Positions 5,208-52,114 of a stretch of 64,000 bases of DNA are shown here, one piece after another. Made by a program: the position numbers and the translations under genes. The stretch is from a virus (taxonomy: Duplodnaviria; Caudoviricetes). Below the pieces are notes generated by a model. It saw only the letters and a list, made by a program, of their open reading frames with translations, had not been told where the DNA came from and did no database searches. Every line of letters starts with the position of its first letter. The stretch's first letter is position 1. The stretch spans positions 95,904 through 159,903 of the IMG/VR virus record IMGVR_UViG_2920693923_000001; one strand, 5' to 3'.

Positions 5208-5245
5208 AAAAAATTCTTTTCTTTGGAAAACTAGGAGGTTTACAG

Positions 5246-5578
5246 ATGGAAATGTTAAAAGAATATTCAGAAAAATACGGATTAAAAGAAGTGGTAAATG
5301 ATTATGGAGAGCATCGCCAGACACGAGAAAGAAGCATTGTATTTCCGAATGGATGGGTTGCTTCTATTGTAGAAAATAATGGTGTTGATACATATAAGCC
5401 AAACGGAGAACACATAAAAGAATTTAAGTCGGATAAGAACTATTCTGTTGCAATGTGTGATTACAATGGATACTTCGATTGGGATATTCTTAATAAATAT
5501 GGAGCAATTGATGGATGTATTTATTGTGACACAGAACTTGAACTACTGGTTGCTTGTGAGACAATCAGGAGATTATAG
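5246..5578 (+). CDS. Hypothetical phage protein
   Basis: AGGAGG RBS, 110 aa. Confidence 0.75.
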   Translation: MEMLKEYSEKYGLKEVVNDYGEHRQTRERSIVFPNGWVASIVENNGVDTYKPNGEHIKEFKSDKNYSVAMCDYNGYFDWDILNKYGAIDGCIYCDTELELLVACETIRRL

Positions 5579-5612
5579 AATGGTGTGCTTTTTTGGATTG
5601 TGAGGTGAAAAG

Positions 5613-5741
5613 ATGAGTATTGTGTTATTCGCAATGATTGGAGCTGCCATAAAAGCAGGTATAGACTATTGGATTTGTTATGGAGTGTATTGTACAATTG
5701 CAGTTTTGAAAATGATAATAAATTTGGTAGAGAATAATTAA
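5613..5741 (+). CDS. Small membrane protein (42 aa)
   Basis: GAGGTG RBS, hydrophobic sequence. Confidence 0.55.
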   Translation: MSIVLFAMIGAAIKAGIDYWICYGVYCTIAVLKMIINLVENN

Positions 5742-5784
5742 CAGTAAAGTTCGATTTCATATGGAAGCGAGGTGAAAGTAGATA

Positions 5785-6084
5785 GTGTCAAAAGGAAAGA
5801 AATTTAACGCTGCCGAAAAACATTTTGAGAAAAAATGTGTAGAGTGGCGAAAGAGGATAAAAGAATTAGAAGAAACGAATAAGCTTCTACACAAACGAAT
5901 AAGCGATAACTGTGATGAAATAGAAAAATTACAGATGAAAAATGAATGCTTAGAACAACAGAACCAAGTGCTTATGGAATTAAAAGATATGTCTGTTGAT
6001 GATGTTAAAACCTTGATTGCATCAAAAGAGTCAGTTAATAAATTGTCTGGATTGTTTGATGCAATGTCAAAGAGAATGTTTTAA
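5785..6084 (+). CDS. Hypothetical coiled-coil protein
   Basis: GAGGTG RBS, GTG start. Confidence 0.7.
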   Translation: MSKGKKFNAAEKHFEKKCVEWRKRIKELEETNKLLHKRISDNCDEIEKLQMKNECLEQQNQVLMELKDMSVDDVKTLIASKESVNKLSGLFDAMSKRMF

Positions 6085-6117
6085 CAAGAAAACTTCGTTT
6101 CATTGTAAAAAATTTCT

Positions 6118-6160
6118 GAGCGATTCAGCTCAATAAAATTCCCAAATTAAAAAGAGAATA
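6118..6160 (+). promoter_or_regulatory. Recurrent GAGC-loop-GCTC ... AGAGAATA element (putative phage promoter)
   Basis: Same layout recurs at 21224, 23546 and 46195, with variants at 13075 and 31413. Confidence 0.5.
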
Positions 6161-6220
6161 TAGATATGTAACCAATTAACATTCATATATAAAAATTATA
6201 GAAAAGGAGAGTACAAACAG

Positions 6221-8821
6221 ATGAATGGATTGAGTAGTAAAGAAGTTCTCAAAAGTAGAGAGCTTCATGGAAGTAATAAGCTTCCTGAACCAAAGTTGGA
6301 CAAGTGGTATGACTTCGCAAAGGAGGCATTAAGTGAGAAAATCACAATGATTCTTATTGCAATTGCGGTATTGCAGTTATTCCTTGGAGTCATGGGAGTA
6401 ATGGATTTGTCAGATCCAATTATGATTCTTGTCGTATTAGCAATTGTAACATGTATTGCTGTTAAGACTGGACTTGGTGTTCAGAAATCAGCAGCAGAGT
6501 TGAGAGCCAAAACATCAGTCAGGTATTGTGATGTAATTCGTGATGGTAAAGTTCAAACGATTAACAAGGATGAACTTGTAGTTGGTGATCTCGTTTGTAT
6601 AGGAATGGGACAAGAGATTTTTGCAGATGGTTATCTCATTGAAGGTAAGATTTCTGTAAACAATGCAGCTATTAACGGAGAAACAAAAGAGTGCAAGAAA
6701 ACACCAGTTGAAGGATACGTTCATAAGAAAACTACTTCAACAGATGCTTATACGAATCAGAATTGTTTATTCGCTGGCACAACAGTAATGTCAGGTGAAG
6801 GAAAGATGATTGTCACCGATGTAGGTGTGAATACAGTAAATGGTGATACACTCGTTAAAATGCAAACACTTGAAGCACCAAAGACAGCACTTGATATTGC
6901 ACTTGATAATCTGAGCGACTTCATTTCTAAGTGGGGAACAATCGCAGCCGTTATTACATTTGCAGTGCTTACAATTTCAGGAATTGCACAGGTTGGATTT
7001 GGAGAATATTTTAGCGGTGGCGTTCTGAATATTATTCAGAAGATCGCACAGAACTTCTCAGTAGCATTAACAATTATTGTAGCTGCTGTTCCCGAAGGAT
7101 TGCCTCTTATTGTAAAACTTGTAACAAAACAGAATGTAAAGACAATGGAGAAATTCAATATTCTTGCTAAGAATCCTGGTAAAATTCCAGAGTTAGCATA
7201 TGTTGATATTATCTGTACTGATAAGACAGGTACTCTTACGACAGGTATTATGACTCCAAAGAAGATTATTGATGGCTTTGGTAATGATGTAAATAAGGAT
7301 TCAGTTCTTTGGAATAATATCAAGGCAAACATTTCTTTAAATAATAGTGCAACATTTGATTCAGAAAACAATATTACAGGTGGTAATTCAATTGATAGAG
7401 CAGTTCTTAGCCTTGTAAATCCTGAAACATATGCTGACATTCAGAAAAAATATCCAGTTAAGTTAAAGCAGGTATTTAATAGTAGCAATAAGTATTCAGC
7501 TTTTACGACAAAGGATGGAGTTACATACTATAAAGGCGCACCTGAGAAACTGATTGAGCATTGCACAAAAGTAATGGATTCAAGTGGTGAAATTATAGAG
7601 AATAACGACAATGACACATTAAGTAATGCAATTACAGCGATGACAAGTAATGCGATGAGATGCATTGCAGTTACAATGGCAGATGGCGATTTAGTAGAGA
7701 ATGAAATACCAAATGACATGACATTCCTTGGAATTATCGGTGTTGTAGATCCTGTAAGAGATGAAGTACCGAGTGCAGTAAAAACAGCACATAAGGCTGG
7801 TATTCAAGTTGTTGAAATCACAGGCGATTGTATTGAGACAGCAGTTGCAGTTGCTACAGAGTGTGGAATTTACAAAGATGGAGATTTAGCACTTACAAAT
7901 GATGAATTTGAAGCGATGTCAGATGATGAAGTAAAGAGTATAATTCCTCGATTGAGAGTTATTTCAAGATGCTCACCAAACACAAAACTCAGACTTGTCA
8001 CATTAGCACAAGAGATTGGAAAGTCAGTTGCAATGACAGGTGATGGTGTAAATGATAGTCCTGCTTTAAAGAGAGCTGATGTTGGTTTTGGTATGCAAGG
8101 TGGATCAGATGTAGCAAAAGAAGCTTCAGACATTGTATTGACAGATGATAACTTTGCAAGCGTTGTAAAGGCAGTAGAACTTGGAAGAACATTTATGCAC
8201 AATATTATGATGTTCCTTGAATTTCAGTTACCTATCAATATTTCACTTCTGATTCTCAGTGTTATCTATCCAATGATTGCAACAGGTGCATTACTTGCAT
8301 CGGTTCAGATTCTGATTGTAAATATCATTATGGACTCTCTTAATTCATTATCATTTGGTGGCGAACCTCCAAAGGATGAATATATGACTGAGAAACCTAT
8401 TAAGAAAGGTTCTGGCTTATTCATCAGAGGTGCAAAGAAACGTATTGCATTAAGTACAGTAGCATTTATTGCACTTTATGGAATTATTACATTCAGTCCT
8501 ATTGCAAATATGTTTGCATCTGAAACAGAAGCTATGACAGCGAGATTCGCATTGTTATGCTTTATGGCAGTATTTAATGGATTTAACATTCGTACAGAGC
8601 ATATTAATTTGTTCAATGGTATTGGGAAGAACAAACTGTTCTCAGCCATTGCAATCGGAATTTTTGTAATGACTTTTGCTCTTTGCAACTTTGCAGAAAA
8701 TCTTATTAAGGTTACAGCTTTAGATTTCAAACATTGGGTAGTAGTTGTAATTCTAGCGTTTATGGTTATTCCAATTGATCTTATTAGAAAGATTATTAAG
8801 AAGAAAAGAGAGAATAAGTAA
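6221..8821 (+). CDS. Calcium-translocating P-type ATPase (PMCA-like)
   Basis: PEGL, DKTGT, KGAPE, TGD, GDGVNDSPAL and NIIMDS motifs; multiple transmembrane helices. Confidence 0.92.
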   Translation: MNGLSSKEVLKSRELHGSNKLPEPKLDKWYDFAKEALSEKITMILIAIAVLQLFLGVMGVMDLSDPIMILVVLAIVTCIAVKTGLGVQKSAAELRAKTSVRYCDVIRDGKVQTINKDELVVGDLVCIGMGQEIFADGYLIEGKISVNNAAINGETKECKKTPVEGYVHKKTTSTDAYTNQNCLFAGTTVMSGEGKMIVTDVGVNTVNGDTLVKMQTLEAPKTALDIALDNLSDFISKWGTIAAVITFAVLTISGIAQVGFGEYFSGGVLNIIQKIAQNFSVALTIIVAAVPEGLPLIVKLVTKQNVKTMEKFNILAKNPGKIPELAYVDIICTDKTGTLTTGIMTPKKIIDGFGNDVNKDSVLWNNIKANISLNNSATFDSENNITGGNSIDRAVLSLVNPETYADIQKKYPVKLKQVFNSSNKYSAFTTKDGVTYYKGAPEKLIEHCTKVMDSSGEIIENNDNDTLSNAITAMTSNAMRCIAVTMADGDLVENEIPNDMTFLGIIGVVDPVRDEVPSAVKTAHKAGIQVVEITGDCIETAVAVATECGIYKDGDLALTNDEFEAMSDDEVKSIIPRLRVISRCSPNTKLRLVTLAQEIGKSVAMTGDGVNDSPALKRADVGFGMQGGSDVAKEASDIVLTDDNFASVVKAVELGRTFMHNIMMFLEFQLPINISLLILSVIYPMIATGALLASVQILIVNIIMDSLNSLSFGGEPPKDEYMTEKPIKKGSGLFIRGAKKRIALSTVAFIALYGIITFSPIANMFASETEAMTARFALLCFMAVFNGFNIRTEHINLFNGIGKNKLFSAIAIGIFVMTFALCNFAENLIKVTALDFKHWVVVVILAFMVIPIDLIRKIIKKKRENK

Positions 8822-8837
8822 TTGAGGAGATGAGAAC

Positions 8838-9041
8838 ATGGTAATGAGAGATAAAAGTTATAAAACAGTAGAGATTATTACTCTTATATGTTTTTCAATT
8901 AGTGTTATTACAGTATGTATTACACGCTTTATTCCATTTATTTTTCTGATATTACTCACATTCCCAATTTCTTTTAAATTATTAAAAGGGAAGGTTGACA
9001 GCCTTCCCAAGAATAAGGAGGACAAAAAATATGTCAATTAG
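8838..9041 (+). CDS. Small two-TM membrane protein
   Basis: GAGGAG RBS, hydrophobic, inside the operon. Confidence 0.65.
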   Translation: MVMRDKSYKTVEIITLICFSISVITVCITRFIPFIFLILLTFPISFKLLKGKVDSLPKNKEDKKYVN

Positions 9042-9609
9042 TTTAGTTAAAGGTCAGAAGATTGACCTTACAAAAGGCAATGCAGGTTTAAACAAAGTCG
9101 TATTTGGTCTTGGATGGGATACAAATAGATACGATGGTAATGCAGATTTCGATTTGGATGTATCAGCATTTTTTACTGATGATTCAGGAAAGGTAACAGG
9201 CGAACAGGATTTTGTATTTTATGGTCAGCCACAGCACCCAAGCGGAGCATTGATTTATTCTGGCGATAATAGAACAGGTGTAGGTGATGGCGATGACGAG
9301 ACAATGATTGTTGAGTTAAATAAGATTCCATCTAATATTACAAAGATTAGTTTCTCAGCGACAATTTATGATGCAGAAAATCGTTTACAGAATTTCGGAA
9401 TGGTTGATAATTCGTACATTAGAGCATACAACGCTGATACAAATGAGGAACTTTTCAAATATGAACTTAATGAGGATTTCTCATTAGAGACAGGTGTTAT
9501 TGCAGGTGAGTTGTATCGTAAGAACGGTGAATGGAAGTTTAATGCAGTTGGTTCAGGTTACAATGGTGGTTTAGCTGCTATTGGTAGAAATTTTGGTTTG
9601 GATTTATAA
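9031..9609 (+). CDS. terD: TerD-family protein
   Basis: SLVKGQ, GLGWD, DLDVSA, GDNRTG-GDGDDE, GEWKFNAVG motifs. Confidence 0.92.
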   Translation: MSISLVKGQKIDLTKGNAGLNKVVFGLGWDTNRYDGNADFDLDVSAFFTDDSGKVTGEQDFVFYGQPQHPSGALIYSGDNRTGVGDGDDETMIVELNKIPSNITKISFSATIYDAENRLQNFGMVDNSYIRAYNADTNEELFKYELNEDFSLETGVIAGELYRKNGEWKFNAVGSGYNGGLAAIGRNFGLDL

Positions 9610-9627
9610 AATGGAAGGAGAATATAT

Positions 9628-10203
9628 ATGTCAGTAAATTTAGTCAAAGGACAGAAAATTAATTTATCTAAGGAAGTAGCAGGTGGTCTTACAAAGATTA
9701 TGGTAGGACTTGGATGGGATGCTGTTAAGAAAGGATTATTTGGCTCTAAGCCAAACATTGATTGCGATGCTTCGGCAATTATTTTGGGAAAAGATGATAA
9801 GTATCGTACATGTGTTTATTATGGTGACAGATCAGCGGAAGACAGATGTGTGTATCATCATGGCGACAACCTCACAGGAGATGGAGACGGTGATGATGAG
9901 CAGATTACAGTTGATCTTGCGAATATTACAAATAAGGTTGAGAAGATTGTATTTGTAGTAAATATCTATGATTGTATTTCAAGAAAGCAGGATTTTGGAC
10001 TTATCAAGAATGCGTACATTAGACTTGTTGATGAGTCAACTGGTAAGGAAATTTGTAAATACAATCTTTCAGATGATTATGCTGGCAAAACAGCAATGGT
10101 ATTTGCAGAGGTTTATAAGAAAGACGGAGAGTGGAAATTTAACGCTATCGGTCAGGGAACAAATGATTCAAGTATTAGCGAATTAACAAGAAGATACAAA
10201 TAG
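9628..10203 (+). CDS. TerD/TerZ-family protein
   Basis: GLGWD, GDNLTGDGDGDDE, WKFNAIGQG motifs. Confidence 0.9.
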   Translation: MSVNLVKGQKINLSKEVAGGLTKIMVGLGWDAVKKGLFGSKPNIDCDASAIILGKDDKYRTCVYYGDRSAEDRCVYHHGDNLTGDGDGDDEQITVDLANITNKVEKIVFVVNIYDCISRKQDFGLIKNAYIRLVDESTGKEICKYNLSDDYAGKTAMVFAEVYKKDGEWKFNAIGQGTNDSSISELTRRYK

Positions 10204-10215
10204 GAGGATTTAATT

Positions 10216-10797
10216 ATGTCAGTTTCGTTAAGTAAAGGACAGAGAGTAGATTTAACAAAGGGTAGACCGTCATTAAAAAACATTCTTGTTGGACTTGGAT
10301 GGGATATTAATCATTATGACGGAGAAGCAGATTTTGATCTCGATGCCTCAGTGTTTATGACAAAAGAGAATGGCAAGGTTGGCAAGGATGAGGATTTCAT
10401 TTTCTATGGTAATCTTGAACATAGTTCAAAGAGTGTAAAGCATATGGGAGACAACCGTACAGGTGAGGGAGATGGAGATGATGAGGTTATTAAGATTAAA
10501 CTTGATAAAATCCCATCAGACTATGAGACTCTTGCTGTGACGGTTACAATTTATGATGCTGAGAGCAGACTTCAGAATTTCGGTATGGTTGGAAATGCAT
10601 ATGTGCGTGTAGTAGACGAAGAGACAGGCGAGGAACTTATTCGTTTCGATTTAAGCGAAGACTTCTCTACGGAGACTGCGTTAGTCGTAGCTGAAATTTA
10701 TAAACATAATGGCGAATGGAAGTTTAAGGCTGTAGGAAGTGGCTATAATGGTGGATTAAAAGCATTATGTAATCAGTATGGAATTGATGCAGAGTAG
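10216..10797 (+). CDS. terD: TerD-family protein
   Basis: GLGWD, DLDAS, GDNRTGEGDGDDE, WKFKAVG motifs. Confidence 0.92.
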   Translation: MSVSLSKGQRVDLTKGRPSLKNILVGLGWDINHYDGEADFDLDASVFMTKENGKVGKDEDFIFYGNLEHSSKSVKHMGDNRTGEGDGDDEVIKIKLDKIPSDYETLAVTVTIYDAESRLQNFGMVGNAYVRVVDEETGEELIRFDLSEDFSTETALVVAEIYKHNGEWKFKAVGSGYNGGLKALCNQYGIDAE

Positions 10798-10806
10798 GAG
10801 GACTGT

Positions 10807-11556
10807 ATGACAAATTTTATGTTTATTGTAATTGTGGCGATTGTATTAATTGCACTGGTTCTTTTCTTTACTCCTTTTGGTAAACAGCTTCGAGTAAAGT
10901 TTAAAGGAAGAACGGATGAAGTAATGCGTCAGGATGCACAGACACCAGAAGGTGCTAGAGATTATTACAACGCAGCTATTAGAGAAAAGGAAGATTTTTA
11001 TAACAGGGCATCTGCTACATATGCTGAAATCTCAGGAAAACGTGATACAGCAGAAAAAGACTTGTATCAGGCGAATAAAGATATTATGCGTGTTACACAG
11101 CAGATTAACGCTTGTCTTGATGAAAACAAAGAGGATGAGGCAATGCAGTATGCAATGAAGAAGTCTACTTTGGAGAATAAGATTAATGTACTAAAAGATA
11201 CAATCGAAGAGATGAAAGAAGCACAGGCTCACCAGAAAGACATTCGTGATCAAGCAGCCGAAGAATTGCAGAAACTTAAAGAGGAAAAGGAACAGGTTCT
11301 TTTTCAGATGGAAGCCGATAGCCAGATTATTGAACTTCATCAGAGTATGGATAGTCTTAATACGAATAATGAGAGCGATAGAATGCTTGAAAGAGTTCGT
11401 GAAGGCGCAAGAAAGACAAGAGAACGTGCAGAAGGAAGTAGAATTGCATATGATTCTAGCGCACAGGCTAATGAGAGAAGACTTGCTAATTCTGAAAGAG
11501 AGCGTAATGCTCGTCAGATCCTTGATGATATGAAGAGACAGAGAGGTAATAAGTAA
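10807..11556 (+). CDS. PspA/IM30-like coiled-coil protein with N-terminal TM anchor
   Basis: N-terminal hydrophobic helix, then ~220 aa of coiled coil with a PspA-like pattern. Confidence 0.6.
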   Translation: MTNFMFIVIVAIVLIALVLFFTPFGKQLRVKFKGRTDEVMRQDAQTPEGARDYYNAAIREKEDFYNRASATYAEISGKRDTAEKDLYQANKDIMRVTQQINACLDENKEDEAMQYAMKKSTLENKINVLKDTIEEMKEAQAHQKDIRDQAAEELQKLKEEKEQVLFQMEADSQIIELHQSMDSLNTNNESDRMLERVREGARKTRERAEGSRIAYDSSAQANERRLANSERERNARQILDDMKRQRGNK

Positions 11557-11738: not shown

Positions 11739-11794
11739 ATAAATTGTATTAGAAAGAAACGCACATTTCTTGCGGAATTTTGGAGGTGAAAAAC

Positions 11795-12193
11795 ATGAAG
11801 ATAATTGGCTGGGAAAGAAAAGGTAATGTAGTTAAATTTGCGTTGGGCGATAATCATTTAAAGGATTGGAGTGGCGATGATTGGAATGATGCTCCATATG
11901 AACATAATGCATGTACAACTCCTTTATTTGGCATTGAAAAATACTTAGAAGTTGCATTTACATATGAATCATCAATATTAGAACCATGTGATGATTATAA
12001 TTATCACGGTAATTCTCCGTTTTGTATGGATGATTTTAAGGAAAGAAAAGTGCCATTTATGATAATTGATACGACTGGAGAAGAGATGTATTATTCGAAA
12101 GCATTATTGAACAATAAAAATGCTTTTGTTTTTATGGGTGATAATATTGATAAAATTCAATGGGATAAACTCAATGGAACAATTATAGGATAA
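11795..12193 (+). CDS. Hypothetical phage protein (GDDWNDAPYEHNA motif)
   Basis: GGAGGTG RBS. Confidence 0.75.
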   Translation: MKIIGWERKGNVVKFALGDNHLKDWSGDDWNDAPYEHNACTTPLFGIEKYLEVAFTYESSILEPCDDYNYHGNSPFCMDDFKERKVPFMIIDTTGEEMYYSKALLNNKNAFVFMGDNIDKIQWDKLNGTIIG

Positions 12194-13058: not shown

Positions 13059-13244
13059 AAGTAATTCTATTCACGGCTGATCAGCCAAATTTCCCCAAAA
13101 AGTAACAAGAAATATTTTTTTCATTCGATTAGGCAAACGTGCCTATTTTCGGGTGATTTTACAACAAAATAATATTAAAAAGAAAGGATTTAACAGTAAA
13201 TTCTAGGTAATTATGGTTACGTAACCTCTGTAGATTAAAGGATT

Positions 13245-16327: not shown

Positions 16328-16673
16328 ACTATGTGAAATTTGTGATACAAGAAATAGACTTGGGATGTGTAAAGGCAGAGACGGAGATTTTCAATATTGT
16401 TTTAGAAGAGTTGGTTCTACGAACGGATTGGAAGAAACAATTACTCCATTTAATACGTTACATGAATTATATGAGAAGTGTAGTTGGCTTAAATGGATTG
16501 TTCCTGAAACACTTGTACTGGAAAATGAACCATATGGTAGAGGAAACGATATGGTGTTGCTTTGGGGACAATCCGAAAGACAATTAGGAACAAATGAAGG
16601 TCAGCCAGTAGGTTATGTTATAGCTAATGTAACAGAAGATATGGAGGGAATTTTGTATTCGGAAGAATCATAG
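16320..16673 (+). CDS. Hypothetical phage protein
   Basis: AGGTG RBS; overlaps the upstream stop. Confidence 0.65.
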   Translation: MNKLCEICDTRNRLGMCKGRDGDFQYCFRRVGSTNGLEETITPFNTLHELYEKCSWLKWIVPETLVLENEPYGRGNDMVLLWGQSERQLGTNEGQPVGYVIANVTEDMEGILYSEES

Positions 16674-16700
16674 ATTTCATAGGAAGAAAAGGAGACAACA

Positions 16701-18527
16701 ATGGCGGTTGAATTAAAAGTAAACGTTATCAATCAATTAAAACTATTAAGGCAAAGCACGTTTAAGGACATATATTGCTTTCTTGACGAAGATGTGCAAA
16801 ATGCCCAAAGAGCAAAAGCAACAGAAGTTAAAGTTACAATTGATAGATATGAAAATAAAGTGGTTATAGAGAACAATGGAAATATTTTAACAAATCCGCA
16901 AGCATTATTTTCTATTGCAGAAAGTGGTTGGGATGAGAGTGTGAGAAGTTCTGAAAATCCTTTTGGCATGGGGTTCTTTAGTAATATTACAGTCAGTAAT
17001 TTAATCAATGTTCATTCTGGAAACACATATATTACATTTGATGTAGAAAAAATGATTGCAACCAGTAACACAGAAATTGAAGTTGAAGAATTAGATGATT
17101 ACTATAATGGTTTCAAGCTTGTTTTGAACAATTTTGATTTTGAAACAGCAAATAGTTGGGATATTGAAGAAAGAGTAAAAATACTTGGAAAATATGTTCA
17201 TGAATTGGATATTTATTATAATGGAGAATTAGTTGAAAAGAAAGATTTAACTGAAGGAGATGATAGTGAATACCAATTTTCAATAGAAGATAATGATTGT
17301 AGTGGATGGATTGCTCTTGCAGGTAACTATAGTTGGGGAGAGAATGTTAATATTTTCTATAAGGGTAGGTTAGTCTCAAAATTAGAAAACTTGCCATATT
17401 TAAAAGGAGACTTACATGTAAGTGATAAAACATTAAACCTTACTTCACCTGATAGAAAAAATATTATAAAAGATGAAAAATTGAATGCGTTTCGAGATTT
17501 GGTTAAATTGTATGTAGAAGAATATTGTAATTCCTTGTTAATGAAAGGAATTGAAGATATAAACAACTATTCATCATGTATTGGATATTATGTGAATAAA
17601 AAGAATGTAAAAAATCTTATAAAATTTATGACTTTTAAAAGTAATAATGAGGAAGATATAAAATATTTAAAAGGGGTAGCGATTGCAAGAAGAAAAGATA
17701 AAAATATTGATAGTTTCAAAGGATATGAATTGTTTTTAAGAAAAGAAGCAGCCTCACAAAATGAACAGATTGTGCAAGAAGTAACAATAATCCCTGAATT
17801 GCAGAATAGACCTAGTGAGGCAAGAGGACGTATATATCATGAAGGATCTTATTCAAGTAGAGATGGATATGTAGAAATTCCAGAAATTAAAGAGCAAGAT
17901 TTGATTGAGCAGAAAGGTTCAGTAATTTTAAAAGAAAAAGAACCAGTATTTTTCATAGCCTTTAATGAAGTAGAACAGTATGAATACAAATTGAATATAG
18001 CAAAACATTATGATTTAAAAATTATTGTGAGCAGGAATGATGTTGAAACTTCAATCTTAAAAATAATGAAGGAATCAGATAATGTTTTACATATTTCTGA
18101 ATTAAAGGAAGATGTCATAGTAAAGGGTTGTTTATCTAATACAGAACTCTCTGTTCAGGAAAACAGAGCAATGATGTTATTTGATATGATTAGCAGGATA
18201 CTTGGATTTGATCATAATGTGTTTTCCATTGGAGATTTAATGGTAACAAAATCCATAACAATTGAAACACTTAATGTAGACGAGGAATTAGTGGAGTCTG
18301 ATATTGTTGCGCTGAAAGATAGTTTAAATAAAAAGGTATATATTGACAGAAGTATTCTTAATAAGAATCACTTGAGAGAAGATATAAACGAAAACTTAGA
18401 TGTCAGAGATTATCAATTTATTATGGCAAATTTTAAGCAATTAATGAAGGAAGTATCTTTGATTGCAGATATGAACGAAGATGATTGCGAAGAAAAGGTA
18501 CTTAATATTTTGGGTAACTGCGCATAA
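16701..18527 (+). CDS. GHKL (HATPase_c, MORC/Hsp90-like) ATPase domain protein
   Basis: EDVQNAQRAKA, ENNG and PFGMGF motifs in the N-terminal domain. Confidence 0.75.
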   Translation: MAVELKVNVINQLKLLRQSTFKDIYCFLDEDVQNAQRAKATEVKVTIDRYENKVVIENNGNILTNPQALFSIAESGWDESVRSSENPFGMGFFSNITVSNLINVHSGNTYITFDVEKMIATSNTEIEVEELDDYYNGFKLVLNNFDFETANSWDIEERVKILGKYVHELDIYYNGELVEKKDLTEGDDSEYQFSIEDNDCSGWIALAGNYSWGENVNIFYKGRLVSKLENLPYLKGDLHVSDKTLNLTSPDRKNIIKDEKLNAFRDLVKLYVEEYCNSLLMKGIEDINNYSSCIGYYVNKKNVKNLIKFMTFKSNNEEDIKYLKGVAIARRKDKNIDSFKGYELFLRKEAASQNEQIVQEVTIIPELQNRPSEARGRIYHEGSYSSRDGYVEIPEIKEQDLIEQKGSVILKEKEPVFFIAFNEVEQYEYKLNIAKHYDLKIIVSRNDVETSILKIMKESDNVLHISELKEDVIVKGCLSNTELSVQENRAMMLFDMISRILGFDHNVFSIGDLMVTKSITIETLNVDEELVESDIVALKDSLNKKVYIDRSILNKNHLREDINENLDVRDYQFIMANFKQLMKEVSLIADMNEDDCEEKVLNILGNCA

Positions 18528-18554
18528 GAAATTGGATTTCTTTTGGAGGTTTAA

Positions 18555-20416: not shown

Positions 20417-20458
20417 AAAGTAACAGTAAAACCACGTTTCATTCGAGGAGGTGATTGA

Positions 20459-20914: not shown

Positions 20915-21196
20915 ATGAATATACAAACAATTGAAGGTTTAGGTTATAAAATCCTCATAACTGAGTATATCACTAAAGATGTTCAAAGAAGAACTCACAA
21001 GAAAAAGCGTATTAACAAGAAGTGGTTGAAAAGATACGGCATAAAAATTATACCAGATAACACGAAAATACTTCTAGTGAATAATACACTTATGATGACA
21101 GGAAAATGTTATGAAAAACTAAGAAAATTCGCAGATAAAGATGCTGATAGTATGGAAAAATTTTTGAAAGAAGCTACTAAGAAACAATCTCAATAA
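20915..21196 (+). CDS. Basic hypothetical phage protein
   Basis: GGAG RBS; RRTHKKKRINKKW segment. Confidence 0.7.
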   Translation: MNIQTIEGLGYKILITEYITKDVQRRTHKKKRINKKWLKRYGIKIIPDNTKILLVNNTLMMTGKCYEKLRKFADKDADSMEKFLKEATKKQSQ

Positions 21197-21287
21197 AGAA
21201 GCATTTCAAATGATTTTATCTAAGAGCGTTTCTGCTCACAATTTCCAAATAAAAGAGAGAATAATTAAATATAAGGAGGTATAAAAC

Positions 21288-22758: not shown

Positions 22759-23097
22759 ATGGAAAACAGATTATTATGGGAAAATGACGTAATTAAAGCA
22801 ATTAGAAATCATACCAATATCATTGGACAGTTAGAGGATGATATAACTCATGTTCTTGATGATGTGCAATCAGTAACAATAGTTGGCTCAAAACAAGCAT
22901 TAGATAACTTACAAGTAGAGTATAAGCAAGTACAGAAACAGAAGCGAGTTGAACTATTCGAGAATAAAGATGTCGTTTTAGAGCAGAGAGGAAATAAATA
23001 TTACTTATCTCTGTACGATAAGAAGGGAAATTTCCAGAGAGAAGTCACTATTTAGGTCAAGGATAATTACAAGGTTGGACTTGGAAATTGTAAGTAA
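22759..23097 (+). pseudogene. Hypothetical gene with a probable premature TAG at 23053
   Basis: The frame continues VKDNYKVGLGNCK to a TAA overlapping a junction site. Confidence 0.45.
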
Positions 23098-23183
23098 ATT
23101 CAGGATTCCTTTGACTTTAAGTAACTTCACAGTAAAGCAACATATCATTTGAAAAATAAAAATTATAAAGGAGAATATTAAAC

Positions 23184-23495: not shown

Positions 23496-23630
23496 TGGTT
23501 TCGCAGTAAACCAATCTTTCTTGTGAAAATTTTTAATCATATCTAAGCCATTCGGCTATGGGAATCCCGACAAATAAGAGAATATTACAGTGTAACTAAT
23601 AAAAATATTACATATAAAGGAGATTTTTAA

Positions 23631-25180: not shown

Positions 25181-25227
25181 AATTTAAATGAAATTTTTCT
25201 TTCCCTTGGACAGATTGGAGGTGTGAA

Positions 25228-27864: not shown

Positions 27865-28149
27865 ATGGGTTATTGTTTTAATTTATATACACCAGATATG
27901 AAAGAACAGGATAGTGGAAAATTTGTAGCTTGTGAGAGATTGTTGTTTTCTAATAATGTACCATTTACTGTTAATACAATTGGATATTACGAACAGTATA
28001 TTGGTGGTAAATATTTGGATATTTATAACAGTGTTTGTATTTTAAATGAGCAACAATGTGAAATTGCAGATGAATATACAGGAACGACATTCTTTACAGA
28101 TTTTATTAAAAAACATGACTGTAATGGAATGTTCATACAGATAACATGA
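27865..28149 (+). CDS. Hypothetical phage protein
   Basis: GAGGT RBS. Confidence 0.65.
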   Translation: MGYCFNLYTPDMKEQDSGKFVACERLLFSNNVPFTVNTIGYYEQYIGGKYLDIYNSVCILNEQQCEIADEYTGTTFFTDFIKKHDCNGMFIQIT

Positions 28150-28197
28150 AAAAAGATTCATTTCTTTAGGAAGTTTTAACAGATAGGAGTGATATAA

Positions 28198-30444: not shown

Positions 30445-30479
30445 GTAGGAATTATCGGTTTACTTGGGAGGTGAAATAA

Positions 30480-30854
30480 ATGAGTTGTAAATATCCAGTC
30501 AATAGTAGAAGTTATAAGTTTTGTTTAGGCTGTAGCGATATAGGTTGTTGTGAAGATGCAGTTACTTCTAATATACCTATGCCAGAAGTTCAGCCACCAA
30601 AGAATGTTATTCCGTCTGCATCAGAAGCAAATAAGATGACAAATAACGCAATTGATAACCGCACTACGCAACAATTAGCAGAATTATCTAAATTAATTAG
30701 AGATGCGATTGCAGATGGCAAATTTTCAATCAGTGAAGATGGTTGTTTAAAACCTGAAACACGGACGAAATTAGAGGGACTTGGTTATAAAGTCGAGACT
30801 GGCACTCGGTACAATGAGCCATATTACAGTATTAGTTGGAGAAAAACAAAGTAA
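30480..30854 (+). CDS. Hypothetical phage protein
   Basis: GGAGGTG RBS. Confidence 0.7.
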   Translation: MSCKYPVNSRSYKFCLGCSDIGCCEDAVTSNIPMPEVQPPKNVIPSASEANKMTNNAIDNRTTQQLAELSKLIRDAIADGKFSISEDGCLKPETRTKLEGLGYKVETGTRYNEPYYSISWRKTK

Positions 30855-31093
30855 ATTTCGATTTCATTGGCTTCGCAAACCCAGTATTTACAAGGGTTTC
30901 AGAGATTAAAAAAATCAAAAATGCTCAAATCGAGTGAAAATCCATAATTTTCAATGATTTTTAGAGAATAACAAAAATGAGGTGCTGAAAACCCTTATAA
31001 ATCAAGGGTTTTGCAGTATCAATATCAAGAAACAGAGAATATAAGAATAACAAGAAATCACTGTTTCCTGTGGATTTCGAGGAGGTGAGAAAG

Positions 31094-32952: not shown

Positions 32953-33933
32953 TTGGCATTTAGAAAAGCAAGAGAAGCAAAGATTGGTGGAAAATTTTTA
33001 GCATATGGTTATGAGGGTTCTGGTAAGTCATGGTTTGCTCTTACATTCCCAAAGGTTGCATGTATCGACTCAGAGACAGGTATTGCTCACTATGAAGGTA
33101 AGGATATTACATTAGCAAATGGTAAGACTTACAACAATCTTATTTTAGTAGACGACACATCAGATCTTGATGATTTAGAGGATGATATTGACGAAGCAGT
33201 AGATTCGGATGAGATTCAGACACTTGATATCGACTCAGAGACTAAGTTTTATGCAACAATGCAGGTTGGAGCTACAGAAGTTGAAGAGAAGAAAGCTCGT
33301 AGAAAGGGTGGAGATGTTGACGATACAGTAGTTTCTCAGAGACAGTGGGGACGTATCAAGATTATTAACATGAAGCTTCAGCAGGCTAAGATTGATCTCT
33401 CTGCAAAGGGTAAGCATGTTGTATCAGTTGCACAGGCAACAGAAGTGTATGAAGGAACAGGCGACAACCGTAAGTTAGTTGGCATTAAACCTGATATGCA
33501 TAAGTCAGTTAAATTTGATTATGATACAATCCTTGAGTTCTATAAGGAAGAGAATGGTGAGGATGTTCGTTATTTTGCAAAGGTCAAGAAGGACAGAACA
33601 AATGTAACTAAGGTTGGACAGATTATTGAGAATCCATCTTATGATATTTGGAAGGATTATTTTGAATCAATGCATGATCTTGAGACAAATGAGACATCAT
33701 ACAAGAATGACTTAAAGACTTCTACAGATTCTATGGTTGACAAAGCTGAGAAAGCAGAAGAGTTGGCTGCTGAATTTAAAGATGTATTAAAGTCGCTCAA
33801 GGATAATAAAGATGCTTTGCTCAAAGTAAACAAGCAGATGAAGGATAAGGATGTTTCATTAAAGAATCTTGAAATGCAGTCACCAGATACTCTTACAGAG
33901 TTAATTGATTTTGCCAAGTTACAGTTAGCCTAA
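32953..33933 (+). CDS. AAA_24/Sak4-like ATPase (recombinase)
   Basis: Walker A GYEGSGKS and IDSE motifs. Confidence 0.75.
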   Translation: MAFRKAREAKIGGKFLAYGYEGSGKSWFALTFPKVACIDSETGIAHYEGKDITLANGKTYNNLILVDDTSDLDDLEDDIDEAVDSDEIQTLDIDSETKFYATMQVGATEVEEKKARRKGGDVDDTVVSQRQWGRIKIINMKLQQAKIDLSAKGKHVVSVAQATEVYEGTGDNRKLVGIKPDMHKSVKFDYDTILEFYKEENGEDVRYFAKVKKDRTNVTKVGQIIENPSYDIWKDYFESMHDLETNETSYKNDLKTSTDSMVDKAEKAEELAAEFKDVLKSLKDNKDALLKVNKQMKDKDVSLKNLEMQSPDTLTELIDFAKLQLA

Positions 33934-45320: not shown

Positions 45321-45887
45321 ATGGTTTATGGAGTATTTAGTGGTTGTTATAGTGATTGGTATATAGTCGGTTATTTTAATAATCATCAAGACGCAGAAAA
45401 ATATTGCTGTTTATGTGGAAATGGTGATTACTATGTAAAACCATTAAAAGATTTAACTGATAAAAAAGATTTATCGAAAGTCTCCTTAAAATATTGCCAT
45501 GAAGTTACGTTTGATCGTGGTGATTATACAAACAAATGGAACTGGATTATGAGAGAAGAACCTGAGAGATATACTTGTTATATTGACGATTATTTACATC
45601 GTAATAGCGTAAGACAAGGCATATATGCTATGAATGACTGGTTATGTTTTACTATTAATATAGATCGTGATAACAGAAAATTAGCAGAAAAAATAGCTCA
45701 AGATTATTTAGCTGAATTGCGTTCTTATGTCGATGGGGAAATTACAGATGATAGTATTCAATTAATGAATTATAAACTTGCTGCACCATGTAAAGAACTA
45801 GAACGAATAAAAAAAGAAGAAGAAGAAATTAAACAAAAAGAACTTGCAGAATTAGAAAGATTAAAAGCTAAATACGAAACAAAATAA
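45321..45887 (+). CDS. Hypothetical phage protein
   Basis: GAGGT RBS. Confidence 0.7.
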   Translation: MVYGVFSGCYSDWYIVGYFNNHQDAEKYCCLCGNGDYYVKPLKDLTDKKDLSKVSLKYCHEVTFDRGDYTNKWNWIMREEPERYTCYIDDYLHRNSVRQGIYAMNDWLCFTINIDRDNRKLAEKIAQDYLAELRSYVDGEITDDSIQLMNYKLAAPCKELERIKKEEEEIKQKELAELERLKAKYETK

Positions 45888-45919
45888 ACGACAGTTTCTT
45901 TGGAAGATTGGAGGTAATT

Positions 45920-46551: not shown

Positions 46552-46636
46552 GAAAAGCCTTGAAAATAAGGCGAAATTCGAGATGAAATTTCCAAGTAAA
46601 TTGGACTTTCATTGGATTTGAAAAGGAGGAATAAAA

Positions 46637-47362
46637 TTGAAAGCAACAGTAACAAGTATTACAGGATTTTATGGGGCATTCGTTTCAATGTTTATGAGTA
46701 AAAGAACTTGGACACCTGAATTAGACAAAGAGATCAAAGAAGTTTGTGATTCTGTATTGGATAACAATGGAAGACTGCGTGAAGAGCAGGATAGTGAGAA
46801 TCTCGAAAGGTTTAATAAATGGCTTGGTATGCTACTTCGTATGGGTAAAAGACATATTACAGTTCTTAGATTTTTAGATATTGAAATTATGACAGAGGGG
46901 ATGCATAGGGCTGGGCAGGACGATCTTGATAGCCACGCACGTAGATTTGAGAATCGAATTATTAGAAGTAGTACAAGATTAGCAACTTTCGCAGATGGTG
47001 AAGTGTCTGATTTTTATAAAGATAAAGTCCTTACAGATGGACAGGTATGCAAGAGTTTAGGATATGAACTGCCAAATGAGATTGAATATGAAGGAAAAAC
47101 ATATGTTAAATCCACAAATGGTTATGTATTAAAAGAATACGAGAATAACAAGGACGTAAAACGTGGTCTATATATGTTAGGAATTCCAAGTAATTTTATC
47201 TCTAAGATTAATCTATGTGAATGGGGACATGTATTTAGAGAACGTTGCGCTGATGGCGGTGCTAATCCAGAGGTAAAAGAGTGGGCAGAACAGGTTATGA
47301 AACAGATTACAGAATTTCACAAAGAGATCACAAGAGATTATGTTTTGTCGATTCAGAACTAA
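46637..47362 (+). CDS. Divergent ThyX-like (flavin-dependent thymidylate synthase fold) protein
   Basis: RHITVLRF, DLDSHARR...SSTR and RC...ANPEV loosely match ThyX motifs; nucleotide-metabolism context. Confidence 0.45.
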   Translation: MKATVTSITGFYGAFVSMFMSKRTWTPELDKEIKEVCDSVLDNNGRLREEQDSENLERFNKWLGMLLRMGKRHITVLRFLDIEIMTEGMHRAGQDDLDSHARRFENRIIRSSTRLATFADGEVSDFYKDKVLTDGQVCKSLGYELPNEIEYEGKTYVKSTNGYVLKEYENNKDVKRGLYMLGIPSNFISKINLCEWGHVFRERCADGGANPEVKEWAEQVMKQITEFHKEITRDYVLSIQN

Positions 47363-47393
47363 ATAAATGTTCATTTCATAGGAGGCGATCATA

Positions 47394-47612
47394 ATTAGAA
47401 ATCTAGCACGTATAGATAAATTTACAGCAGAATTAAATAGAATATGGAAGAAATATTTTCCTGATTGGAGATACGGACAACTTATGATGAATTTTCTTGG
47501 ATGGGTATCTTGCGACAAGAAAATTGATCCGTTTTTCATTGAGGAAAATAAGATGCTTACATATTTAAAAGAATATTGTGGAGAGGAGGTGGACGATGGA
47601 AACAGTAATTAG
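47394..47612 (+). CDS. Hypothetical phage protein, probable ATT start (missed by the ORF track)
   Basis: AGGAGGCGAT RBS; RNLARIDKF...PDWRYGQL...DPFFIEE. Confidence 0.65.
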   Translation: MRNLARIDKFTAELNRIWKKYFPDWRYGQLMMNFLGWVSCDKKIDPFFIEENKMLTYLKEYCGEEVDDGNSN

Positions 47613-48873: not shown

Positions 48874-49062
48874 TTAAAAGTGGTTATTATCATTATAATA
48901 CTTGCGTATGCTATAAGTTGGATTGTGACTTGTGGCATCATCAAACTTGTTACATTATGTTTTGGGTGGACATTTAGATGGTCTGTGTCCACAGGCATTT
49001 GGTTAACGTTTATTTTGGCAAGAACAGTTTTCAAACAATCGAGCAAGTAAAGGAGGAATTTT

Positions 49063-49734: not shown

Positions 49735-49748
49735 GGAGGTATACACAT

Positions 49749-50309
49749 ATGCATAAAGTGTTTTGTATTATTGGACGAACTGCATCTGGTAAATCAACAA
49801 TTGTGAGTGCAGTTGCAAAAGATATGAAGTTAAAAGTCTTGAAATCTTATACGACAAGAGCAAGACGTAAGAATGAAGTTGGGAAACATTGTGATCACAC
49901 ATTTATTTCTGCTGACGATGTAAATAAATATATGAATGACATGGTTGCTTACACAGAAAGATCAGGCTATTGTTCTTTCGCAACAGAGTCGCAGTTAATG
50001 AATTCTGACTTATATATCATTAATCCCAGTGGTTATTCAGACTTAATTAACACGACAAGAAATATTCCGAATCTACAGTTGATTGACATTTGGATTGACT
50101 GTGATACTGACCAGTTACAGCTTCGATCGAAGAAAAGGTCTACAGCAGATAATTGGCAAGCTAATTACATAAAAGAAGAGGAAGAGTTTAATAAGATTTA
50201 TTCTAATATTGATCCAAAACATTCATATCATGTAGACAACAATGGAGATATATCAGAAGCAATTGGAAAAGTCGAAAGTATTATATTATATGAGCAGCAT
50301 TTAGCTTAG
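49749..50309 (+). CDS. Guanylate-kinase-like nucleotide kinase
   Basis: GRTASGKS and SYTTRARR motifs. Confidence 0.8.
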   Translation: MHKVFCIIGRTASGKSTIVSAVAKDMKLKVLKSYTTRARRKNEVGKHCDHTFISADDVNKYMNDMVAYTERSGYCSFATESQLMNSDLYIINPSGYSDLINTTRNIPNLQLIDIWIDCDTDQLQLRSKKRSTADNWQANYIKEEEEFNKIYSNIDPKHSYHVDNNGDISEAIGKVESIILYEQHLA

Positions 50310-50325
50310 AGGTGGTGAGAGAAAG

Positions 50326-50487
50326 ATGTTTGAGAGTTTCTGTAAGCATAAATCTTACAAAATAATCAGATGTGAAAAGAGTGAACATAAATATACATGT
50401 CAGTGCATGAAATGTGGTAAGCAGTTTGAACTGCCAAAAGCACCTGATGAGATGTATACCATTGGACAGGTTGTAAAACTATGGTAA
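50326..50487 (+). CDS. Small Zn-binding protein (53 aa)
   Basis: GAGGTGG RBS; CKH...CMKCG. Confidence 0.55.
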   Translation: MFESFCKHKSYKIIRCEKSEHKYTCQCMKCGKQFELPKAPDEMYTIGQVVKLW

Positions 50488-50497
50488 GGAGGTAAAT

Positions 50498-50737
50498 ATG
50501 TTTAAAGAGTATTGGATTGAATTAGATACCATTGATGGAGCAAAGCAATTAAATGCAATTGCGCTCAGTTATGAAGAAGATATAGATATTATTAAGGGTA
50601 GGTATGTCATTGATGCAAAATCAATTCTTGGTATCTTCAGCTTGGATATTTCGAAGCCAGTGAAAATAAAGATTCATTCTGATGATCTATCCGTATTGGA
50701 TAAGTTCTATCAAGATATTAAAGATTTTGTTTTGTAA
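50498..50737 (+). CDS. HPr-like phosphocarrier protein lacking His15
   Basis: IDAKSILGI (Ser46 motif); no GLHARP motif. Confidence 0.8.
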   Translation: MFKEYWIELDTIDGAKQLNAIALSYEEDIDIIKGRYVIDAKSILGIFSLDISKPVKIKIHSDDLSVLDKFYQDIKDFVL

Positions 50738-50767
50738 AATATTATATATAAAGAAGAGGTGATTTTA

Positions 50768-51341
50768 GTGAGTCGAATACGTGATTTGTATATCGATTAT
50801 GACTGATGGGTGCATAGTTAATACGATTAAAGCCATATGTGAGATGTATAATGAAGATTTTAAATACTATAAAAATTTTAGGCATATTGATTGGTGGGAA
50901 ATTAATACATGGAATTTTGAAGAGTGTAATTGTGCTAAACCATCGTATATTGATTCATATTTTAATCAGCCAAGATTTTTCCGATATATTACTTATATGG
51001 ATTGGGCGAAGGAGATATTAGATGAACTGAAAGAAACTTATAAGATAAGTATTGTTTCTGCTGGTTATAGTCCAAATCTATATGGTAAATCAATTTGGAT
51101 TAAGGAGAATTTACCTTATTGTGATTTTATAGGAGTTAATTTGAAACAATATAAAAATAAAGGACATATAGATATGAGTAATGGTATTTTCATTGATGAT
51201 TCTTACAATAATTTAATCGCATCAAATGCAATGATTAATATATGTTTTGGAGATATATATACATGGAACAAAGATTGGCAAGGTATAAGATGTAAAAATT
51301 GGCATGATGTTAATGATTTTTTAGGAGGTTTAGTTAAGTAG
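50768..51341 (+). pseudogene. 5'(3')-deoxyribonucleotidase (NT5C/HAD), frameshifted in motif I
   Basis: GTG AGT...YIDYD then TGA; removing 4 nt at ~50801 gives DYDGCIVNT; downstream FIDDS. Confidence 0.7.
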
Positions 51342-51526
51342 TGAAATATATGACAAGCCATGAGTTAGCGAAAGAACTATTGAGTAGACCTGATCATATG
51401 ATAACCGCAACACATGGAAACAGAGAATACAGTATTAGAGATTATCAGATGGCAGTAGATTACCGCAACTATGATGACTCAACAACTTATTGGACTCTGA
51501 ATTTGTGCTCAGAGAGAATTATATAA
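51341..51526 (+). CDS. Hypothetical phage protein
   Basis: GGAGG RBS. Confidence 0.6.
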   Translation: MKYMTSHELAKELLSRPDHMITATHGNREYSIRDYQMAVDYRNYDDSTTYWTLNLCSERII

Positions 51527-51533
51527 GAAAGGA

Positions 51534-52073
51534 ATGTATATGAGCATTGCATTAATAGGGCAAGAATGTAGTGGTAGACATACTGTGTTAAATGAATTAT
51601 TGACTATGGGATACGATACCATTAGATATTATACGACAACTCCTGATTACGGATACGATAATAACTATCATATTAGCGACAAAGAATTTTGTGAAATGAT
51701 TGATAGTGAGCAGTTCCTATATTGGGAGGCTTTTGAAACAAATGATGGCATTAATTATATCGGAACTAAATATTCTGATTATGCTGGTGGAAATAAAGTT
51801 GTTATAGTAGAAGATATGGCAAAGTTACATACATTAGTTTCGTACTTCCCAGAGTTTAAGTCTATTTATTTAAAGGTAGATAAACATGAAATTAATAATC
51901 GAATAATGTCTATATATACTACGAAAGATGCCGTTAAAAAGGTAAAAAAGCGTAACAAGAAGTTAAAGGCGAGAAATCAAGGGATGGAAACACTTGCTGA
52001 TTGTATAGTTGATAATTATGGCAGATTACCTTATCAAACAGCAGTGATATGCAAGTGGTTTGATCAAGAGTAG
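51534..52073 (+). CDS. Second, degenerate guanylate-kinase-like protein
   Basis: GQECSGRH (P-loop Lys replaced), YTTTP, YIGT. Confidence 0.65.
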   Translation: MYMSIALIGQECSGRHTVLNELLTMGYDTIRYYTTTPDYGYDNNYHISDKEFCEMIDSEQFLYWEAFETNDGINYIGTKYSDYAGGNKVVIVEDMAKLHTLVSYFPEFKSIYLKVDKHEINNRIMSIYTTKDAVKKVKKRNKKLKARNQGMETLADCIVDNYGRLPYQTAVICKWFDQE

Positions 52074-52114
52074 GTGAAAAGGTTGATTTCTTATGGAATC
52101 GAGAAAGGAGATAA

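Follow-up and report, generated by a model that had tools for sequence, protein, structure and literature searches.

Why should the junctions between the accessory genes of a large prophage carry the same small palindrome again and again? This question is raised by the final 64,000 nucleotides (hereafter, the window; genome positions 95904-159903) of a 159,903-bp provirus in the IMG/VR database (record IMGVR_UViG_2920693923_000001; Duplodnaviria, Caudoviricetes), in which copies of a short motif with an AAA-N6-TTTC core, here called the junction dyad, lie between neighbouring genes. An original prediction, made from the letters of the window alone, interpreted these copies as an integron-like system of recombination sites through which the phage gains, loses and reorders gene modules, and named operators for one dimeric regulator as the main alternative. 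The best reading of the sequence comparisons reported here, which we adopt tentatively, is that the dyad would be a docking site with a primary role other than recombination, and that it would double as a short-homology joint between relatives. Positions are those of the window unless the genome is named.

Detection of the junction dyad

The provirus consists of a late block of - strand genes (1-70 kb) and a block of + strand early, accessory and replication genes (70-155.4 kb). A de novo motif search of intergenic DNA, an unseeded expectation-maximization (EM) run allowing zero or one occurrence per sequence (ZOOPS-EM) and started from random seeds on 82 intergenic regions of the + strand block, converged on A-n-(G/T)AAA-N6-TTTC-W-T-nn-G(G/A)AA, with 35 sites at a posterior >0.9. 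The fixed extended pattern AAANNNNNNTTTCNTNNG matched 13 times in the window, compared with 1.47 +/- 1.28 times in shuffled sequences, and 0 of 100 shuffles reached 13; the enrichment of the bare AAA-N6-TTTC core was weak (51 versus 35). Scored with a position weight matrix (PWM) at 14 bits, the early block contained 34 intergenic + strand matches, compared with approximately 1.3 per shuffled genome, and the whole 70-kb late block contained 2-3. The PWM was trained on the same sites, and the independent checks are the fixed-pattern count against shuffles and the dyad spacing count, in which the strict N6 spacing was enriched over other spacings in this phage (22 versus 5.0). The motif described in the original prediction is therefore far above chance. 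In total, the provirus holds 42 copies, the first of them at genome position 75282.

Of the 23 copies that had been listed, 18 were confirmed (5208, 5741, 6084, 11756, 16665, 18527, 20423, 21194, 23503, 25190, 28151, 30449, 30852, 31050, 45885, 46597, 47364 and 52077), and the copy at 31050 is indeed the most symmetric. Those at 5578, 15039 and 45273 are not copies of the motif, those at 23095 and 46141 are weak, and two copies, at 13105 and 23129, had been missed. A second motif, 'AGAGAATAT', was considered as a candidate promoter and dropped because it is mostly the ribosome site GGAGAATA(A)AT-ATG.

Placement at early-gene junctions

At the upstream end, 26 of the 35 sites begin -7 to +11 nt from the upstream stop codon, with TGA or TAA often built into the left arm, and at the downstream end 24 of the 35 finish 4-17 nt ahead of the next start codon. 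The remaining sites stand directly after a stop codon, ahead of a terminator-like hairpin or a long gap. These counts bear out the predicted placement at gene junctions, with overlap of the upstream stop codon and proximity to the next gene start. The single polarity that had been claimed was also recovered (13/13 fixed-pattern matches on the + strand), and no copy occurs in the replication block, that is, between 31050 and 45881. The copies within the window are as follows.

5204..5231, + strand: junction dyad with spacer AATTCT, 14 nt ahead of the start codon at 5246 (EM posterior 0.93, PWM site)
5741..5768, + strand: junction dyad ACAGTAAA-GTTCGA-TTTC, abutting the upstream stop codon, next start 16 nt on (EM, PWM, fixed pattern)
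6084..6111, + strand: junction dyad ACAAGAAA-ACTTCG-TTTC, abutting a stop codon and followed by a hairpin, upstream of the ATPase-TerD module; the homology of many relatives begins here
11752..11779, + strand: junction dyad with spacer CGCACA, 15 nt ahead of the start at 11795, after the ATPase-TerD-PspA module (EM, fixed pattern)
13105..13132, + strand: junction dyad ACAAGAAA-TATTTT-TTTC, followed by a terminator-like hairpin (EM, fixed pattern)
16661..16688, + strand: junction dyad, GAAT variant with spacer CATAGA, preceding a 608-aa gene (PWM)
18523..18550, + strand: junction dyad with spacer ATTGGA, overlapping the stop codon of the 608-aa gene, next start 4 nt on (EM posterior 0.99)
20423..20450, + strand: junction dyad ACAGTAAA-ACCACG-TTTC, start 8 nt on (EM, fixed pattern)
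21190..21217, + strand: junction dyad with a weaker right side and spacer GAAGCA, overlapping a stop codon and followed by a hairpin (EM posterior 0.97)
23129..23156, + strand: junction dyad ACAGTAAA-GCAACA-TATC (EM, PWM)
23503..23530, + strand: junction dyad GCAGTAAA-CCAATC-TTTC, upstream of the LemA module; spacer retained in relatives with other upstream genes
25186..25213, + strand: junction dyad with spacer TTTTTC, after the LemA module (EM, PWM)
28147..28174, + strand: junction dyad with spacer GATTCA, overlapping a TGA stop codon (EM, fixed pattern)
30445..30472, + strand: junction dyad, GAAT/TTTA variant with spacer TATCGG, 7 nt ahead of the start at 30480 (EM, PWM)
30848..30875, + strand: junction dyad AAAGTAAA-TTTCGA-TTTC, stop codon within the left arm; relatives change neighbours on either side of the core (EM, fixed pattern)
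31050..31077, + strand: junction dyad ACAAGAAA-TCACTG-TTTCCTGT, the final site ahead of the replication block (EM, PWM, fixed pattern)
45881..45908, + strand: junction dyad with spacer CGACAG, left arm holding a stop codon, start 11 nt on (EM, fixed pattern)
46593..46620, + strand: junction dyad with spacer TTGGAC, preceding the ThyX-like gene (EM, fixed pattern)
47360..47387, + strand: junction dyad with spacer TGTTCA, overlapping the stop codon of the ThyX-like gene (EM, fixed pattern)
52073..52100, + strand: junction dyad with spacer GGTTGA, the final copy of the provirus (EM, fixed pattern)

Among the modules that the sites had been said to bracket, we recovered the P-type ATPase with three TerD proteins and a PspA-like protein, LemA, and the ThyX-like gene, but the supposed GHKL ATPase (the 608-aa gene) gave no Pfam match. 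The claim that every spacer differs holds for all 42 copies in the provirus; by our own estimate, however, this is near the chance expectation for 42 random 6-mers, and spacer uniqueness was accordingly rejected as a sign of design. Consensus scans for sigma-70 promoters and for terminators showed no enrichment and no tie to the sites, and placed neither element inside the motif.

Symmetry without pairing of the arms

The conserved positions are A2, G/T4, A5-7, T14-16, C17, T19 and G22, with six free bases in the middle and a weak enrichment of C at -1. They form a dyad, A-n-G-AAA / TTT-C-n-T, around a strictly 6-bp unconserved centre (full form CACAAGAAA-N6-TTTCTTGTG), and an additional GRAA lies four bases past TTTC. 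Conservation is stronger in the right half; the left half shares its bases with stop codons and coding sequence, and this overlap explains the apparent polarity of the motif.

If the two arms paired with each other in RNA or in a cruciform, their variable positions should covary. The complementary pairs observed at these positions (0/21, 1/20, 3/18 and 4/17) were about as many as expected. Ten sites folded as RNA were no more stable than shuffled sequences (z -1.9 to +1.5), and an AAA/UUU hairpin appeared, only in part, in the minimum-energy fold of 1 of the 10. A hairpin or cruciform was rejected on these two grounds. From a conserved dyad whose arms do not pair, we infer a double-stranded DNA site read by a symmetric protein, and the motif is accordingly a predicted docking site for such a protein.

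The same data bear on the possibility that the motif acts as a signal in polycistronic early mRNAs, either as a processing site or translational-regulator binding site upstream of the ribosome-binding site, or as a small switch in which UUUC would pair with the upstream GAAA or the downstream GRAA. The strict coding-strand polarity and the distance of 4-17 nt to the start codon in 24/35 sites would fit such a signal, and several minimum-energy folds do pair UUUC with the GGAA four bases downstream. Nevertheless, we consider a role in RNA improbable: the folding energies do not exceed those of shuffles and covariation is lacking, dyad symmetry of the conserved bases would be meaningless for single-stranded recognition, approximately one-third of the copies lie far from start codons and ahead of hairpins, and the polarity is already accounted for by the overlap of the left arm with stop codons and coding sequence.

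Spacers and joints in related phages

Three anchor proteins retrieved approximately 170 related loci from gut viromes, which contained 548 + strand motif matches in 3.4 Mb, with 145 different spacers. Motif density drops in more distant relatives, and in one subgroup the variant TGAAA-N6-TTTCA is dominant. At orthologous positions the spacers are invariant, and they follow the same order in 59 loci (31<32<33<35<36<37, no exception), among which the DNA between collinear sites is mostly unrelated. Because the order of the spacers is retained while the intervening DNA differs, each copy is a positional landmark.

The genes adjoining a given landmark vary on both sides. For 64 upstream contexts we found 2-10 alternative downstream partners, and for 67 downstream contexts 2-15 alternative upstream partners, mostly with one spacer. 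To locate the joints, we compared relatives in which a site has one flank in common and the other different, and scored each pair of contexts as one event. For joints to a new downstream context, the first mismatch fell at index 14-21 of the site in 57 events, at index 22-27 in 13 and at index 28 or beyond in 39, and in none did it fall in the left arm or spacer; for joints to a new upstream context, it fell at index 0-7 in 61 of approximately 89 events and in the spacer in 11. Thus, when relatives differ in a gene next to a site, their sequences part at the border of the AAA-N6-TTTC core. In a few events the sites joined have unlike spacers, and the change of sequence lies precisely at AAA|spacer or spacer|TTTC. 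In one clear example, a GTTCGA site and an ACTTCG site flank a single small gene in locus L069, and locus L074 has in their place one hybrid site, ACAGTAAA-ACTTCG-TTTC. At least three alternative downstream neighbours were seen for 63% of gene ends that precede the motif, compared with 20% of motif-less gene ends, a difference that is confounded by core genes.

The comparison of breakpoints and spacers, by which the original prediction had proposed to separate recombination sites from operators, gave a mixed outcome: the invariance of the spacers favours operators, and the breakpoints favour joints.

A counterpart in SPbeta

The PWM of this phage showed no enrichment on the Bacillus phage SPbeta (NC_001884). 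An unbiased dyad count, however, revealed a variant there, TAAAA-N6-TTTTA, with 34 exact copies compared with 1.6 at other spacings; the last 39 kb contained 16 copies, compared with 0.64 in shuffles. The SPbeta dyads lie mostly at early-gene junctions, and in 10 of them the TAA is the stop codon of a frame that stays open for 40 codons or more. Over the homologous 22-31 kb, phi3T, Goe11, Goe13 and Goe14 have 10-14 exact copies (15-20 with one mismatch). No account of the junction dyad turned up in the literature that we could search.

These counts also bear on the possibility that the motif has no function and is a by-product of a stop codon (TAA/TGA + A), an AT-rich spacer and a purine-rich ribosome site, maintained by recent common descent. 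The left arm does often hold the stop codon, and the bare core is only weakly enriched. We regard this explanation as very improbable, since TTTC-W-T, the most conserved part, belongs to neither the stop codon nor the ribosome site, the N6 spacing is enriched both here and in SPbeta, the motif is absent at late-gene junctions with the same grammar of stop codon and ribosome site, and 145 independent spacers stand between conserved arms.

SPbeta also offers a known repeated intergenic element, SPBRE, which is bound by MrpR, a protein with a tyrosine-recombinase fold and no catalysis (PMC10516654). The likeness to the junction dyad is that both are repeated intergenic elements of SPbeta-type phages, and MrpR provides a precedent for recombinase-like regulators. 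SPBRE differs in being embedded in approximately ten promoters, and its sequence, derived from the ten MrpR-bound SPbeta promoters (approximately CAAATACAAATAATATGTAT), and its placement are unrelated to TAAAA-N6-TTTTA and to the junction dyad in general. The long direct repeats in the window contained nothing SPBRE-like, and a protein search of the provirus gave no match to MrpR. An identity of the dyad with the SPBRE/MrpR operator was therefore rejected.

Contribution of the sites to gene mosaicism

To place the joints in an unselected sample, we surveyed collinear BLAST gaps among the relatives, taking unique indels of 100-6000 nt and replacements. A site was present at both ends in 4 of 172 indels and at one end in 36. 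Among 1371 replacements, 15% of left boundaries and 14% of right boundaries lay at a site in both alleles, the 15% being a lower bound because the '--' replacement class is inflated by diverged orthologues. As site windows make up 1.1% of positions, the boundaries lie at sites more often than random positions do; relative to the proportion of junctions with a site, about a fifth to a quarter, no clear enrichment is seen. Breakpoints between the window and relatives also pile up at motif-less junctions (8.8, 10.8, 24.9, 26.15, 26.9 and 29.8 kb). The same survey of five SPbeta-group phages placed TAAAA-type sites at 0/11 indels and at 8-17 of 57 replacement boundaries. The majority of indels and replacements thus lack bounding sites, and the site is not the engine of mosaicism.

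The original interpretation therefore survives in part: the sites are a real, polar family at gene junctions that coincides with module joints and with switches at core edges. A system for gain, loss and reordering is not supported, given the scarcity of indels bounded by two sites, the low share of replacement boundaries at sites and the collinear order, in which no reordering was seen.

Tyrosine recombinases and possible site-specific exchange

The provirus encodes three tyrosine recombinases, and none heads the site array. Int (58158-59501) is a Tn916-type tyrosine integrase with the corresponding arm-binding domain, followed by an att repeat of approximately 45 bp and then by DNA of the host, Coprococcus ammoniilyticus. 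The repeat common to attR and attL is TTATTACGT.TACCAGATAACCCC.TAT.T.TGGACAGAAAAG (window 59569-59615; L191:1439-1485), and the 'half-site at attR' of the original prediction, ACAAGAAT, falls immediately beyond this repeat on the phage side and is not a copy of the motif. P0001, an accessory recombinase of 343 aa, is encoded at genome 92999-94030 (L067:889-1920), approximately 1.9 kb before the window and adjoining a PemK/MazF toxin gene; it has no N-terminal core-binding domain and contains a long insert, and its catalytic residues are apparently intact. Close relatives of Int and P0001 occur in only 13 and 7 contigs, respectively, whereas those of neighbouring early phage proteins occur in 59 to more than 150. 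With such a sparse distribution neither is a family-wide partner of the sites, and both were rejected as drivers. The third, P0002, is a YomM-like protein (29% identical to SPbeta YomM) encoded on the - strand at genome 57181-58215, outside the window (L066:1423-2457). It belongs to the core genes of the phage family (at least 177 relatives at 96-100% identity), and the residues R, K, H-x-x-R, W and Y are in place, so that the catalytic residues are apparently intact.

According to the integron-like scheme, circular cassettes would be excised and inserted by a Tn916-type or another spacer-tolerant integrase. Inverted arms, a 6-bp spacer, one polarity and accessory junctions all agree with this scheme, as do the few indels that run from one site to another with a hybrid site left behind, and the Tn916-type arm-binding domain of Int. 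We nevertheless consider it largely refuted and scarcely credible: only 4/172 indels are bounded by two sites, the spacer order is never permuted in 59 loci, the arms lack attC-like covariation or fold, Int and P0001 are too rarely shared, and the att core is an unrelated repeat.

Another scheme retains a recombinase and gives the spacer the role of an address. A conserved phage recombinase, for which P0002 would be the candidate, would bind the arms and cut at the edges of the 6-bp spacer, with exchange only or mainly between sites of the same spacer, and co-infecting relatives would in this way swap the gene(s) of one 'slot'. Several observations are in keeping with this scheme. Inverted 9-bp arms around a free 6-bp spacer are the architecture of a tyrosine-recombinase core site, the joints lie exactly at both spacer-proximal arm edges, a given spacer occurs with a wide variety of genes on its upstream side and on its downstream side, and hybrid sites remain after one-cassette indels between different-spacer sites sharing 3-4 bp. 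In addition, P0002 is present in diverged form (24-52% identity) in 5/5 records with variant-arm loci, and absent or marginal in 5/5 records with motif-less loci. We treat this co-occurrence as a lead, not as evidence. The sample is small and confounded by phylogeny, and five further distant records with a few TAAAA-type sites show no P0002 homologue, although these records are 58-87% complete. The sites take part in few of the surveyed indels and replacement boundaries, motif-less junctions break equally readily, short-homology exchange predicts the same joint pattern, and the searchable literature holds no activity data for YomM-like proteins. Overall, we rate addressed exchange as possible but unlikely. 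The broader proposition that SPbeta-like phages practise a natural form of addressed cassette exchange, with approximately 40 heterospecific sites per genome having private 6-bp overlaps at fixed slots, seems slightly less likely again; the YomM-like recombinase is the only candidate enzyme that we saw.

A proposed docking site that would double as a joint

We therefore return to the docking site. In the mechanism that we propose, a symmetric, probably dimeric protein of the phage family would bind (C)-a-c-A-n-(G/T)AAA-N6-TTTC-W-T-n-n-G, with GRAA four bases past TTTC, in the short gap between the stop codon of an early or accessory gene and the next ribosome-binding site. Its primary job would probably be regulatory, for example to mark early accessory transcription units or to block them. 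In co-resident relatives, equivalent copies may then act as short-homology joints, because the core is the only sequence common to otherwise unrelated neighbours and each centre is fixed in its map position. An exchange within the conserved AAA or TTTC arms would swap the gene on one side and leave the stop codon and the ribosome site intact. In keeping with exchange by homology, the phage encodes an annealing-type protein, AAA_24 (Sak4-like).

Several findings weigh against this proposal. No binding protein was identified for the dyad, and no copy occurs in the 70-75 kb control region, where the operator of a master repressor would be expected; only a Cro/C1-type helix-turn-helix gene was seen in that region, unlinked to the motif. 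In SPbeta, ChAP-seq of the master repressor MrpR gave only ten peaks, all at promoter regions of genes bearing SPBRE (PMC10516654), which differs from the dyad. A simple operator model leaves unexplained the several copies that precede terminator-like hairpins instead of genes. With regard to the joints, the shared core of approximately 13 bp is short for ordinary homologous recombination, and some exchanges join different-spacer sites that share only AAA or TTTC, for which a site-specific enzyme fits better.

Comparison with known systems

Integron attC sites are 57-141 nt long, are recognized as folded single strands with paired arms and travel with their cassettes, whose order is shuffled. 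The junction dyads resemble them in being imperfect palindromes that bound single-gene units in one orientation, but they show no fold, no covariation, no shuffling of order and no travel with the cassette. Heterospecific lox and FRT sites are used in engineered cassette exchange, and the pdif sites of Acinetobacter plasmids alternate in orientation and resemble dif. With such tyrosine-recombinase core sites the dyads share inverted arms, a 6-bp spacer as an address, the same slot in relatives and joints at the spacer-proximal edges, the last being equally expected from short-homology exchange. They do not resemble dif, however, and do not alternate, and most structural differences between relatives are not linked to a site.

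Two phage systems are closer in placement. The PeSL cassettes of T4-type phages are short intergenic elements among non-essential early genes, at which module insertions, deletions and replacements between close relatives end, and recombination between copies is regarded as a by-product of an element with a regulatory role (Arbiol et al. 2010, PMC2839356; Comeau et al. 2014, PMC4122927). The dyads likewise sit among accessory early genes, and differences in modules between relatives end at them (approximately 15% of replacement boundaries). A PeSL, however, consists of a strong sigma-70 promoter and a terminator stem-loop, whereas the dyad is 24-28 bp long and contains no promoter, terminator or stable stem; its copies also have private 6-bp centres whose map order is kept, and the majority of indels here lack a bounding dyad. 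Stoperators of Cluster A mycobacteriophages are dozens of copies of one protein-binding site, spread across operons in short intergenic gaps and in one orientation (PMC9283540; PMC6550527). The dyad, too, is present in many copies, in short intergenic gaps and in a single orientation relative to transcription. Stoperators are asymmetric, bind a monomeric immunity repressor, are identical to the operator of the early lytic promoter and occupy both genome arms (PMC9283540; PMC6550527); in contrast, the dyad is symmetric, is absent from the control region and nearly so from the late block, and has no linked repressor.

Genome context

The layout of the phage is SPbeta-like, with a YonO-like open reading frame (ORF), the YomM-like recombinase, PolIII-alpha, a Sak4-like AAA_24 protein and a multispecific methyltransferase. 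A megablast of the window against known phages in the reference collection returned no close relative, and the top protein match of the DNA polymerase was 45%. The AAA_24/Sak4-like gene (32953-33933) encodes an annealing-type protein. The YonO-like ORF, of 876 aa and on the - strand, lies at provirus ~64.7-65.3 kb and is weakly similar to the single-subunit RNA polymerase YonO of SPbeta (26% over 170 residues, E 2e-9).

Other features were observed near the dyads. The 365-bp gap that precedes the first dyad of the window contains a tRNA-Gln (UUG) gene (4644-4716). The module at 6221-11556, which has a dyad on each side, combines three TerD proteins with a P-type cation ATPase and a PspA/IM30-like protein; for a phage, such a set of the tellurite-resistance or stress type is unusual. 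Beyond the final dyad, a 1090-aa NrdD-like ORF (52414-55686) has two stretches that match profiles of anaerobic ribonucleotide reductase, with the best match at residues 749-1084. This pattern suggests that the protein either contains an insertion, which could be an intein or an additional domain, or has a fused N-terminal part.

The representative genome of C. ammoniilyticus (NZ_JAOQJS010000004.1, L186) has a related prophage at the same att site. In this prophage, DNA matching provirus 63-70.4 kb is joined within approximately 800 bp to DNA matching 153.7 kb onward; the entire 83-kb early block (provirus 70.4-153.7 kb; window up to approximately 57.8 kb) is missing, and with it every junction dyad.

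Significance

Gut Firmicutes and Bacillus commonly harbour large SPbeta-like prophages, which are dense in defence, toxin-antitoxin and other accessory genes. In these phages, a strictly spaced dyad occupies approximately 40 gene junctions per genome, with arms specific to the lineage (GAAA/TTTC here, TAAAA/TTTTA in SPbeta). Should the dyad be a recombinase target, it would represent a new natural mechanism for the ordered exchange of modules, and addressed exchange, if it occurs, would allow accessory slots to be swapped without disturbing gene order, stop codons or ribosome sites. If the dyad is the site of a regulator, it would define a hitherto unknown layer of control over early accessory genes. 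With 34 copies in the laboratory phage SPbeta, the question is directly testable in Bacillus subtilis.

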